DNA of 11,264 bases from Candidatus Heimdallarchaeota archaeon (lineage in GTDB: Archaea > Asgardarchaeota > Heimdallarchaeia > Heimdallarchaeales > Heimdallarchaeaceae), in contig DAOVER010000075.1 of NCBI GenBank assembly GCA_030668875.1, forward strand, positions 1 to 11,264, in the 5' to 3' direction. The position numbers and the translations under genes were made by a program. Below, piece after piece: positions 3,336 through 5,956 of the stretch (the stretch's first letter is position 1; each line of letters starts with the position of its first letter). The notes under the pieces are model-generated. The model saw nothing but the letters and a program-made list of their open reading frames with translations, was not told where the DNA came from and did not search any database.

Positions 3336-3782
3336 TTAACAACCACAATCTTCAATCTCAACTTCTACCTCTAAATTATTACAATAAACTGTCCAAATTC
3401 CATATATTGAGAAAACAACTATTTGCTGAACTGAATATTCTTCTATTGCTTGTGTTACTTCACCAGTTGGTTCTATTGCATACAGATTAATGTACATATA
3501 ATGATCTAGGAGTGAATCTGGGAATACTACAGTTGGGGGTAATATCACATATCCTCCTGTTGGAAATGTCGCTTCCAAAGTGAAGATAACACTTTCTCCA
3601 GTGGTCAAATTACCACTAATTCTGACATCATCCAAGTCCCATTTAATAACATGTTCTCCATAAATTTCATTTATGTAATGATTTCTTGTTACAAAATATG
3701 TGATAGGAATACTTGAGGCTACTACTACAAAAATCAGTGATAGAGCTCCAATTAATGCCTTTCTAGATATTTGATAACTCAT
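3336..3782 (-). CDS. Membrane-anchored beta-rich protein with PTGGY motif (PrcB C-terminal-like), paralog 1
   Basis: Hydrophobic N-terminal helix (residues ~9-32), FPTGGY and EPTGEVTQAI segments. Ungapped manual alignment with 6624-7058 gives 67/144 identities, confirming a real gene. The PrcB-C assignment is motif recall only. Confidence 0.75.
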   Translation of the reverse strand: MSYQISRKALIGALSLIFVVVASSIPITYFVTRNHYINEIYGEHVIKWDLDDVRISGNLTTGESVIFTLEATFPTGGYVILPPTVVFPDSLLDHYMYINLYAIEPTGEVTQAIEEYSVQQIVVFSIYGIWTVYCNNLEVEVEIEDCGC

Positions 3783-3810
3783 GATTTGATTTTGTCATAT
3801 AGTCATATAA
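3781..3810. repeat. Left copy of 30-bp inverted repeat (ATGATTTGATTTTGTCATATAGTCATATAA)
   Basis: 26/30 identical to the reverse complement of 5121-5150. Contains GTCATAT twice with an 8-bp period. Confidence 0.9.
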
Positions 3811-3910
3811 CATTATCTTCTTTAGAGTTTCATTGCTGGATAGCTCACTCTAAGGGGGTAAACCACGTACCCTCCTACCCCGCCCACACTACGCTTAGGC
3901 AGTGCTTGCG
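3811..3910 (-). ncRNA. Putative omegaRNA scaffold overlapping the tnpB 3' end
   Basis: TnpB omegaRNAs are known to overlap the gene 3' end. This GC-richer tail has several stems: TTAGAGT/ACTCTAA (3822-3828 with 3847-3853), GGGGTA/TACCCC and CACT/AGTG. Boundaries are approximate. Confidence 0.45.
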
Positions 3911-5081
3911 GATCGCCTTTAAGTAAAATGTTGTAAGCAGCGTTAACATCTGCGTTAATTAGAACACCTGTTGCAGAACAAAATAGCCCTCTGTGAACCC
4001 TTCTCCCTTGATAGTTTGCCTGTTTTTGGGATAATTCATTATCCAAGAAACTGCATTTAGAGGAATAAGATTCTTCTATCTTTTCCACTTTTATCCCCTT
4101 CTCTTCAGCTTTGTAAGTGAGTAAATTGATCAGTTTATCAAAAGGGACAATAACAAAGAGTTGGGTAGTCTTCTTCCTCAATCTCAGTTGTTGTTTCCAG
4201 AGAGGATTGTAACCAATGAAGATGGTATGTAAGCCTCTTTTTTCCCATAATTCGACCAGGAACTTGCTAACCTTGTGCAACCAATCTTTCATCTTCCATC
4301 TCCAATGTTGGCGGAGATGAAGGAAAGATTTCCCGTACTGTAATCTGTTCTTTTTACCCAATTGTTTTCGCTGTTGTTCTGCATACTGTTTTTGTAACCT
4401 TTTTACTTCTTTCATGTAATACTGTGTGATGGATTTTACTCCTTTCCCCTCGTCCTTGATGACAATCGGACGCGATCCGATGTTATCCACGAAAGTCACG
4501 AGGTTGGTTAGCCCTAAATCGATAGAACCTTTTCTCTTCCTCTTTTTTTTAATTTGTTTAGGAAGTTGTTTGTGATAGACAAGCTCTATAGTATATCCTA
4601 CACCTCGAGGAATGATCCGTACTTCCCTTAAGTCATCTTGAGCTGTTAACCTAGTTTTGATCGTAAACTTAACTTTTTTTGGTAACACTACCAGCCCATT
4701 AATGATTCTTGGTTGTTGGTTACTGAAGATAGCTATGGTCTCTCCTGTAGGTTTCTTGTAATAGGGAGAGTGGGGGCAACTAAGGAACTTCTGTGGGTAT
4801 TTCTTCCACTCTTTTAATGCTTGAAAATAAGCCTTCCAGTTCCTTGCCAAGAATTTAAGCGTGTGTTGAGCGGTGTGAGCAGGTAAAAGTTTGTAGCACT
4901 GCTCACCCTTTAAGAGTCTGTCTAAATCATTGTAAAAGAGTACTTTGTTGTTTTTCTTTAACTCTTCTTTTATCAGAAAGTTTCCTCGATTGTAGAGGTT
5001 CTTAGTGAGATGACAAAGTTTACTTAACTCTTTGTTTTTGCGCATTTCTATTATTTCTGTCCGCAAGACTTTAATCATCAT
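3822..5081 (-). CDS. tnpB: TnpB-family RNA-guided endonuclease with rearranged RuvC-II
   Basis: N-terminal LCHLTKNLYN, RuvC-I SIDLG (D188), RuvC-II position FIGYNPLWKQ (G290 in place of Glu), alternative Glu in EESYSSKCS (E336/E337), RuvC-III NADVNAAYNI (D378). No CxxC..CxxC zinc finger. Confidence 0.95.
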   Translation of the reverse strand: MMIKVLRTEIIEMRKNKELSKLCHLTKNLYNRGNFLIKEELKKNNKVLFYNDLDRLLKGEQCYKLLPAHTAQHTLKFLARNWKAYFQALKEWKKYPQKFLSCPHSPYYKKPTGETIAIFSNQQPRIINGLVVLPKKVKFTIKTRLTAQDDLREVRIIPRGVGYTIELVYHKQLPKQIKKKRKRKGSIDLGLTNLVTFVDNIGSRPIVIKDEGKGVKSITQYYMKEVKRLQKQYAEQQRKQLGKKNRLQYGKSFLHLRQHWRWKMKDWLHKVSKFLVELWEKRGLHTIFIGYNPLWKQQLRLRKKTTQLFVIVPFDKLINLLTYKAEEKGIKVEKIEESYSSKCSFLDNELSQKQANYQGRRVHRGLFCSATGVLINADVNAAYNILLKGDPQALPKRSVGGVGGYVVYPLRVSYPAMKL

Positions 5082-5100
5082 ACTTTTCTCTTGCTTTCCC

Positions 5101-5108
5101 TATATAAA
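5101..5108 (-). promoter_or_regulatory. TATA box TTTATATA of tnpB (probably leaderless transcript)
   Basis: 19 nt upstream of the ATG, no obvious SD, spacing typical of an archaeal promoter. Confidence 0.6.
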
Positions 5109-5120
5109 CTCAGAAAATAT

Positions 5121-5150
5121 TAACATGACAATATGACAAAGTCAAATCAT
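5121..5150. repeat. Right copy of 30-bp inverted repeat (TAACATGACAATATGACAAAGTCAAATCAT)
   Basis: Reverse complement ATGATTTGACTTTGTCATATTGTCATGTTA matches 3781-3810 at 26/30. Confidence 0.9.
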
Positions 5151-5212
5151 ATGAACATGTTGGGTATGGGATTAATATTTCTTTCTTATTTTTTTGAGCT
5201 CCCAAGGATATT

Positions 5213-5227
5213 GTAAATACTATTTAC
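5213..5227. other. Perfect 7-1-7 palindrome GTAAATA-C-TATTTAC directly after the flavodoxin-fold gene stop
   Basis: The dyad is seen directly and abuts the TGA at 5228-5230. Function unknown. Confidence 0.35.
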
Positions 5228-5956
5228 TCATCTTTCATAGGGTTTATCTCTTAGCTTATCTTCAGCACCAAATTGTTTTGCTGCTTCAGGCCAAGTACTA
5301 TTGGCACCCTTCACATATGATTCTAAAGGCATTGGAATAAACTCTAATTTCTGAAGGTCATCTTTTGGAACAATTTCACCTTTGCTCAAATGCTTCACTG
5401 ATGATCTAATTACGGAATCAAGAATTTTTGTAGGTTTATTATAAATTTCTTGTCTATAATCATCCTCTGGTAATTGTTCCATCATCTTCAAGAACTCTGG
5501 TATGGGGTATGTGGCATATGTTCCAGCAGCACCAATTGGTAAACCTCCTGCCCAAATTAAATCATTTTTCTTTGCAAATTGTTCATAGATTTTCAAAACT
5601 AAACTGTTATGATAATATTCAAGAAAACCAGCATTTGATATTGCAAAAAGATGTCTTGTTTTGTTGCTTAGCTTACCTTGTTGAAACACTTCAGATATGA
5701 TATCCATTAGTTTAATTGTCATATAAGGAGCTTGATCTATATAGAGTGGCGATGAGATTAGGACAATGTCGCTATCATCGATAGACTTGATCATCTCTTC
5801 TGTTTTTTCTTGATTCTTTAGTGTTTTATATACACCAAAGGTCTTCACAATTATCTCTTTCTCCTCAAATAAGCTTACAAGATAGGAGCCAATAGAATGA
5901 GAGGCACTTTTATCTCCCCTTGGACTACACATTAGGAAAGTTAACTGTTTATTCAT
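5228..5956 (-). CDS. Flavodoxin-fold NAD(P)H-dependent (FMN) oxidoreductase
   Basis: Phosphate-binding loop CSPRGDKSAS, SSPLYID and ISNAGF segments typical of the NADPH-dependent FMN reductase-like fold. AGGTG SD; 4-bp ATGA overlap with the upstream gene. Confidence 0.82.
   Translation of the reverse strand: MNKQLTFLMCSPRGDKSASHSIGSYLVSLFEEKEIIVKTFGVYKTLKNQEKTEEMIKSIDDSDIVLISSPLYIDQAPYMTIKLMDIISEVFQQGKLSNKTRHLFAISNAGFLEYYHNSLVLKIYEQFAKKNDLIWAGGLPIGAAGTYATYPIPEFLKMMEQLPEDDYRQEIYNKPTKILDSVIRSSVKHLSKGEIVPKDDLQKLEFIPMPLESYVKGANSTWPEAAKQFGAEDKLRDKPYER

Follow-up and report, generated by a model that had tools for sequence, protein, structure and literature searches.

A solo tnpB element with mirror-image, AT-bounded ends in a Heimdall archaeon and its possible movement in trans by an IS607-type recombinase

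The 11,264-nt stretch of DNA analysed here (the window) is a contig (DAOVER010000075.1; C59) of G000, the genome of Candidatus Heimdallarchaeota archaeon (GCA_030668875.1), an assembly of 3.23 Mb in 99 contigs with 33.8% G+C. It contains a mobile element made up of an intact tnpB gene, whose product belongs to a class of RNA-guided nucleases, held tightly between mirror-image ends. The element is one copy of a large tnpB-only family in Heimdall (Asgard) archaea. It is best filed as an IS1341-type element of the IS607 lineage that has AT as its core and ends of unusual symmetry, that is, a known element type varied and not a new kind of transposon. The explanation favoured here, to which we give about an even chance, is that this non-autonomous element is moved by an IS607-type serine recombinase that is supplied in trans and crosses over at AT.

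The two ends of the element match one another closely. Positions 3781-3810 and the reverse complement of 5121-5150 are identical at 26 of 30 nt, and an inverted-repeat finder reports the pair 3781-3806 / 5125-5150, 26 nt long and complementary at 24 of 26 positions (92%). The best 26-mer match in 300 shuffles of both 100-nt flanks reached 20 of 26. Each arm contains two GTCAT(A/G)T units placed 8 bp apart and has AT as its outer end. The inner edge of the right arm lies 11 nt from the tnpB stop codon, and the left arm lies 12 nt from the TATA-like TTTATATA, a box that paralogues keep as TTTATATAGGG or TTTTTATAAG. These results confirm an inverted repeat that tightly encloses tnpB and its TATA box, as an earlier note on this DNA had claimed. 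Joined to each other, the ends of the window copy form a near-perfect palindrome around AT. A single gene and no transposase are encoded between them, which supports the view that the element is non-autonomous.

The boundaries of the element are exact. When full copies are aligned with their flanks, homology begins and ends at the same points in every copy, and in public contigs the loose ends of other copies begin at 3781 and stop at 5150. Two sister species present the site without the element (G016:C7 and G021:C199; flanks ~77-87% identical). The empty sites run ...GATAACTCAT|AGGAAC... and ...GATAGCTCAT|ATGACA..., and the filled site in the window runs ...CTCAT, then GATTT...AAATCAT, then ATGAAC.... 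AT is present at both junctions of the filled site and only once in the empty sites, as CTC-AT-ATGA, so insertion added 1368 bp including one AT, with nothing else duplicated or lost; the element measures 1368 bp when one AT is counted as its own and spans 3781-5150 when both are. The comparison shows a scarless insertion into the start codon of a small gene, which took place after the split from the two sister species. This gene (3336-3782, minus strand) encodes 148 amino acids (aa) and has no Pfam match. Its ATG is rebuilt from the terminal AT of the element (3781-3782) and a flanking G, and the gene now lies directly behind tnpB, separated from its own upstream region by 1.37 kb. The 148-aa gene seems to be absent from the syntenic region of another genome (G010:C173). 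A duplicated target AT and a shared crossover AT are indistinguishable by sequence. The absence of an own transposase, the boundaries and the junction AT had all been proposed in the earlier note and are borne out here, and the further copies, flanks and empty sites for which it advised a search were found.

The family extends across the genus, which is represented by G000 and 23 other genomes, all metagenome-assembled and incomplete (63-94% complete). In G000 the element has ~36 DNA matches and 42 protein matches, many of them at contig ends, and ~25-30 paralogues have the same ends. Well over 200 further matches with these ends are found in 20 of the 23 other genomes, and few lie outside the genus. 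Nearly all tnpB frames of the family are 415-425 aa long and free of stops, and most are intact despite at least 10% divergence. Because the copies in G000 are at most 95% and mostly 88-92% identical, the family may be largely immobile now, its transposase perhaps lost and its tnpB kept intact by selection. Deletion derivatives that retain both ends accompany the full copies. In G000 they comprise a 69-bp derivative that consists of the ends only (C36:29955-30023), a ~116-bp miniature (C61:14647-14762) and a 278-bp miniature with left end, promoter, first ~50 codons and right end (C95:48326-48603); a ~330-bp miniature (L150:2807-3135) retains the omegaRNA region besides the ends.

A junction table of 41 distinct left ends and 43 distinct right ends defines what is common to the family. 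From the outside inward, both ends read AT, 8 nt, TTTGTCAT, N, TTGTCAT and ATTA, in mirror image. ATGAT opens 40-41 of the 43 right ends, with GAT as an invariant right tip. The left tip varies (G/A-A-A/T), its first element base being G or A about equally often and the next 6 nt varying as well. The 8 nt that separate AT from the first unit are poorly matched between left and right end in most relatives, so the repeat of the family as a whole is not the full 30 nt; it consists of AT, the two units and ATTA. The window copy is the most symmetric member of the family.

The flanks of these copies reveal a target motif. On the tnpB strand, the left flank has T at -2 in 35 of 41 ends and T at -1 in 32 of 41, followed by AT, which together give TTAT. 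This tetranucleotide occurs on the left side only, and the right terminus of the element is TCAT. Beyond this terminus the first position is unconstrained (G 17, A 13, T 10, C 3) and the second is A in 30 of 43 ends. The target is thus approximately TT-AT-N-A, symmetric at its outer positions and asymmetric at the inner one, where T occurs in 32/41 ends on the left versus 13/43 at the mirror position on the right.

IS607-family ends contain short direct repeats and imperfect inverted repeats (Chen et al., PMC6188088). Family members make no duplication, their terminal dinucleotide is also found in the target, and their terminal bases barely affect transposase binding (PMC6188088), with which the poorly conserved left tip between AT and the first unit accords. 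In the circle, the joined ends are expected to make up a crossover site in which half-sites flank a central dinucleotide (Boocock and Rice, PMC4058570). In a Clostridium botulinum IS607 element, the transposase target and the transposon-associated motif (TAM) of TnpB are both TGGG, the element ends in TCGG, and the resulting mismatch at -3 blocks self-cleavage (bioRxiv 10.1101/2023.11.20.567912). By analogy, the TTAT/TCAT pair of the window family appears to mirror the logic of this TGGG/TCGG pair, with its GG core, which has been shown experimentally.

The nuclease itself points in the same direction. The tnpB product matches the Pfam families OrfB_IS605 (3.1e-10) and Cas12f1-like_TNB (2.6e-14), both above the cut-offs. 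Residues D188 (RuvC-I) and D378 (RuvC-III) are conserved and align to D191 and D361 of ISDra2 TnpB (8EXA). The canonical position of the RuvC-II glutamate is occupied by an asparagine, N292, likewise in 18 of 18 aligned relatives, and across the same 18 relatives E337 is invariant, six residues ahead of the first cysteine (ExxxxxxC). A glutamate relocated in this manner is the criterion of Yoon et al. for the IS607 lineage (PMC10711439), and the rearrangement in the window TnpB matches the variant described there. The zinc finger is degenerate, with two of four cysteines left, and this too holds for all 18 relatives, the IS607-linked one included. A search of the PDB with the window TnpB returned TnpB and Cas12f matches only, with no specific sequence link to Fanzors.

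Relatives that still have a neighbouring transposase gene were sought in six neighbourhoods of the nearest 50%-cluster representatives. On L157, P0130 (44% identity) stands immediately behind a 195-aa gene that matches Pfam Resolvase and whose translation starts in a helix-turn-helix (HTH)-like manner. On L158 and L159, which also carry P0130, the upstream gene is cut by the contig end and unannotated. P0126 (46% identity) is preceded by an HTH_17 remnant of 67 aa. The nearest TnpB relatives with a linked transposase (44-46% identity) thus appear to be IS607-type.

The right end probably has a second role in the guide RNA. The final ~140 nt of the element are conserved far above what synonymous sites would allow and contain hairpins with compensatory changes among 18 non-redundant copies, such as GGGTA...TACCC versus GGATA...TATCC. 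Conservation stops at ...CATCAT, and the predicted scaffold ends in ...AAAUCAU. This region is predicted to be the expected omegaRNA scaffold, with the right arm, its last ~30 nt, as the 3' tail, which would account for an invariant right tip beside a variable left one. The left arm is located upstream of the tnpB TATA box and is therefore not transcribed from the tnpB promoter. The position of the guide was placed according to the known layout of TnpB elements (PMC8612924) and the mapped boundary. Rfam gave no match within window positions 3600-5300. Features are collected in Table 1.

Table 1. Features of the element in the window and of the resident IS607-type element of the same genome
Feature	Position	Strand	Basis or remark
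Element body between both junction ATs	3783..5148	-	Paralogue homology ends exactly here; empty sites; public contigs
Right-end (RE) arm	3781..3810	.	AT, 8-nt spacer, two TTGTCAT-type units at 8-bp period
Left-end (LE) arm	5121..5150	.	Same geometry as RE; upstream of tnpB TATA box
AT at right junction	3781..3782	.	Empty-site comparison; candidate crossover dinucleotide or half of 2-bp duplication
TAM-like tetranucleotide at left junction	5149..5152	-	ATAT here; family consensus TTAT; last two bases are the junction AT
tnpB, 419 aa, intact (protein P0001)	3822..5081	-	Pfam matches; alignment to ISDra2 TnpB (8EXA)
TATA-like box TTTATATA of tnpB, within element	5101..5108	-	Read from sequence; putative function
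Predicted omegaRNA scaffold, overlapping tnpB 3' end	3781..3925	-	RNAalifold alignment of 18 non-redundant copies; single-sequence fold; 5' limit approximate
Predicted guide and target	3761..3780	-	Flank 3' of right end; first 20 nt of 148-aa gene after its AT
Resident IS607-type element	G000:C48:36104-38849; also C15:30700-31490, C87:1-2378		196-aa TnpA and 638-aa TnpB-like protein

Taken as an IS607-lineage element, the family would move as follows. The mirror-image ends, with their AT, 8-nt spacer and two TTGTCAT units, would be bound by a transposase acting in trans, most probably a serine recombinase of the IS607 type. Once joined to each other in an excised circle, the ends would present the near-perfect palindrome centred on AT, which has the layout of a serine-recombinase crossover site. 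Recombination with the AT of a TTAT(N)A target would insert the element, and the reverse reaction would reseal the donor exactly. TnpB, guided by an omegaRNA whose guide is the adjoining flank, could then cut the resealed empty site, recognising TTAT together with the guide match, and this cut would set off homing, in which the element is copied back from a filled site. Filled sites would be protected from cutting by the element's own terminus, TCAT instead of TTAT.

The likeness of the window family to IS607, IS1535, ISC1926 and the C. botulinum IS607 IStron spans several levels. All have a dinucleotide at both junctions with no further duplication, short direct repeats near both ends combined with inverted similarity between the ends, and a flank motif that differs from the right terminus at one position. 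They also have in common a tnpB with a 3' guide RNA that ends at the right terminus (predicted for the window family), the relocated RuvC-II glutamate and, in the nearest transposase-linked relatives of the window TnpB, an IS607-type partner. IS607 is usually described as being without terminal inverted repeats (TIRs). Against this background the ends of the window family are far more symmetric, up to the near-perfect palindrome. The earlier note had seen in this symmetry a TnpB captured by an unusual type of transposon. That proposal is unsupported here, given that such repeats are already described at IS607 ends (PMC6188088), that TTAT/TCAT mirrors TGGG/TCGG and that the closest transposase-linked relatives are IS607-type.

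Several observations weigh against an IS607-type serine recombinase as the mobiliser. The unit period of 8 bp is below the ~10-bp helical phasing reported for IS1535, and characterised IS607 members use GG and not AT. The window element has no tnpA, and none of the genomes and collections searched yielded a cognate one; specifically, no serine transposase stands beside family members or TTGTCAT-type ends in 30 fetched TnpA loci, in G001 or in a metagenome-wide pattern scan. None of the 30 TnpA loci, which come from the genus, contains a family member or a TTGTCAT double unit. The metagenome-wide double-unit scan returned 90 stretches with one true family member (L239), again a solo tnpB, and a viral scan returned a single viral-contig match without tnpB or tnpA. 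The autonomous, transposase-bearing copy for which the earlier note had suggested looking was thus not found in the genomes and collections searched. In addition, no excision product, empty-site joint or circle junction appeared in the public data, which consist of assembled contigs only, from four runs of one marine-sediment study; contigs of all four runs bridge filled junctions.

The genome does contain serine transposases of the expected type. Three IS607-type tnpA genes, with a MerR-like HTH followed by a resolvase domain, are present in G000 (C15, C48 and C87), and homologues occur in 17 of the 23 other genomes. Those of G000 belong to a different element, which also has a TnpB-like gene (638 aa), end repeats of AAGTTTGAC type at a 10-bp period and a terminus reading ...ACGTGCGT; ~25 copies of its 87-bp right end are scattered over G000, many at contig starts. 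Since both the ends and the TnpB of this resident element differ from those of the window family, cross-mobilisation is unsupported. Its ends share only a GTCA core with the TTGTCAT units, and this was not counted as evidence for cross-recognition by the resident TnpA. The left flank of the resident element is ACCGT in three copies and its right terminus is GCGT, pointing to GT as a possible core. Two other serine recombinases of G000 (C18:25768-26484 and C29:40648-41397) were rejected as candidates; both are single-copy genes with a resolvase N-terminus that do not lie inside a repeat, and the one on C18 is ~900 bp outside a tnpB right end by chance.

The strongest alternative to the IS607-type serine recombinase is a DDE transposase encoded elsewhere, acting by cut-and-paste or copy-out and duplicating a 2-bp AT target, which would make the element a miniature DDE transposon with tnpB as cargo. 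This is unlikely overall but plausible. The ends are true inverted repeats of identical geometry, the outer target positions are symmetric (T at -2, A at +2), and a 2-bp duplication would account just as well for an AT that is seen at each junction of the filled site and a single time in the empty one. Against it, DDE termini are usually near-invariant, and the left tip here is not; the inner target position is asymmetric; and at most 2 bp are duplicated. Duplication of AT is not known from any DDE family. No DDE transposase with these ends was found in G000, in G001, among the 30 TnpA loci or by pattern scans of metagenome and viral sequences. IS630-type (PF13358, DDE_3) and IS110-type (PF01548) transposases were not found in G000, and its four IS4/IS5-type DDE genes, located on fragmented contigs, have no TTGTCAT motif nearby. 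A 2.6-kb pair of ends on G001:C15 that resembled an autonomous copy proved to enclose host genes, an ArsR-type HTH gene and a NosD/beta-helix gene, beside a left-end remnant. Of the two mechanisms offered in the earlier note, serine crossover at AT and DDE duplication of AT, the evidence leans towards the former, but the letters of the junctions are the same under both.

Known TnpB branches show that a DDE partner is feasible in principle. Six DDE-linked branches with inverted terminal repeats have been described (DDE-1 to DDE-6, the IS630-linked one included; Altae-Tran et al., PMC10691335), in which solo TnpB copies lie inside ends identical to those of transposase-bearing copies. They resemble the window family in the symmetrical inverted ends around tnpB and differ from it in that no DDE partner was found for the window family, its duplication is at most 2 bp, its left tip is variable and its target is asymmetric. 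The Fanzor-carrying TIR transposons of eukaryotes likewise combine a TnpB-superfamily nuclease and a relocated RuvC-II glutamate with inverted ends, but their hosts show clear target duplications and known eukaryotic transposases, as opposed to the duplication of at most 2 bp seen here. A further case is a 43%-identical relative (P0123 on L153), which is also a solo tnpB held tightly within TIRs, the right repeat abutting the tnpB 3' end. Its repeat is 23 bp long and of unrelated sequence, and it is flanked by a perfect 9-bp target duplication (CTCGCTCCC). This element is likely DDE-mobilised, so TnpBs of this clade can ride DDE-type transposons, a further point against an IS607-type mobiliser. 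It lies in a JGI metagenome (L153:2909-4555), where it splits a MASE3 histidine (sensor) kinase gene, and the ~100 aa by which its called protein is extended at the N-terminus may be a miscall.

A mobiliser of an undescribed kind, either an enzyme from outside the known transposase families, encoded at an unlinked place by host or plasmid, or cleavage by TnpB with host repair alone, is a doubtful possibility that ranks below a DDE transposase. In its favour, the >200 matches across the genus come without a cognate transposase gene in any genome or collection searched, and most tnpB frames have stayed intact in spite of their divergence. That absence, however, rests on incomplete metagenome-assembled genomes, and the copies are old enough for the transposase simply to have been lost. 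Moreover, ordinary site-specific recombination is characterised by just such precise ends, a target motif that is fixed and a junction that is palindromic, and guide-directed homing is unable to reach new sites. Cas1, which is linked to some Asgard TnpBs (PMC10691335), was rejected as the transposase; it is present in 5 of the 24 genomes and absent from G000. It seems improbable that a genus-wide tnpB-only family is moved by an undescribed kind of enzyme or by a serine transposase that accepts ends different from its own. If true, it would mean that RNA-guided nuclease elements can persist and spread uncoupled from a linked transposase.

Movement by a Y1 (HUH) TnpA in trans, as in classical IS200/IS605 elements, which move as single-stranded DNA and here would insert 3' of TTAT, is very improbable. 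IS608-type elements insert 3' of a fixed tetranucleotide, have a related tetranucleotide at the right terminus and make no duplication. The TTAT target and the TCAT terminus of the window family follow this pattern, and databases name its proteins IS200/IS605 TnpB. Insertion 3' of a fixed tetranucleotide without duplication is an IS607 trait as well, however, and so does not discriminate. The Y1 transposase domain (PF01797) has no match in G000 or its 23 congeners, at a genome completeness of 72-92%, and control genomes score positive. Single-stranded folds of both ends on both strands reach only -1.6 to -3.7 kcal/mol, no better than shuffles, and form no hairpins. In addition, the similarity of the ends is inverted, whereas HUH recognition requires it on one strand, and the preference for A at +2 past the right end is unexpected for a Y1 mechanism. 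The IS1341 group of IS200/IS605 resembles the window family in having a sole tnpB whose 3' end overlaps a non-coding RNA (predicted for the window family), in occurring several times per genome and in encoding no transposase; this class is set by gene content and not by mechanism, and neither the hairpin ends of its parent family nor, in the 24 genomes, a Y1 partner was found here.

The chance that the repeats are regulator binding sites, or a by-product of omegaRNA structure, that came to stand at both ends by coincidence is equally slight: the right arm does lie within the transcribed scaffold, where its two units can pair into a small hairpin in the window copy, and the left arm does lie just upstream of the TATA box, but the outer edge of the arms is exactly where copies stop being homologous, the arms are equally distant from the junction AT at both ends, and deletion derivatives keep precisely both arms. 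The distribution of the motif bears this out. All close double-unit matches in G000 (0-1 mismatch, extended end context) and all matches to a stricter 19-nt pattern in G001 (20 contigs) lie at a tnpB copy, a truncated copy or a miniature with an internal deletion. A 15-nt pattern at two mismatches gives 209 matches versus 161 in a shuffled genome and is no commoner than chance. The repeat is therefore tied to tnpB elements and their derivatives and not to the promoters of unrelated genes, and the transcription-factor site that the earlier note had named as its own refutation does not apply.

These RNA-guided nucleases occur most often as TnpB-only elements, whose movement has rarely been worked out. 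The window family is a clean case in this respect, with exact boundaries, empty sites, a TTAT/TCAT pair, a palindromic AT-centred junction and a predicted guide for each copy. Placed in the IS607 lineage, it adds true inverted ends to what has been described for IS607-like elements, together with AT as the core and a repeat period of 8 bp. Its TnpB is a compact archaeal nuclease that is predicted to recognise TTAT. The host belongs to the archaeal group closest to eukaryotes, and the relocated glutamate of its TnpB is shared with the lineage that gave rise to Fanzors.

A few further observations concern the window copy and other tnpB genes. Contigs in four of the four public runs join position 3823 to position 5120 on opposite strands, with sides of 31 nt; the join most likely arose in the assembly graph, through the inverted repeat or through paralogues, with an inversion as the alternative. 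A 42%-identical relative of 541 aa (L154:3001-4626) has a faint MazE-like N-terminal extension and may be a member of the MazE-fused TnpB branch of archaea that PMC10691335 mentions. Finally, G000 contains a third tnpB family, ~40-43% identical and with unrelated ends (C13:57538-58725, within C13:57448-58820), of which at least two further partial copies are present on C27 and C80.

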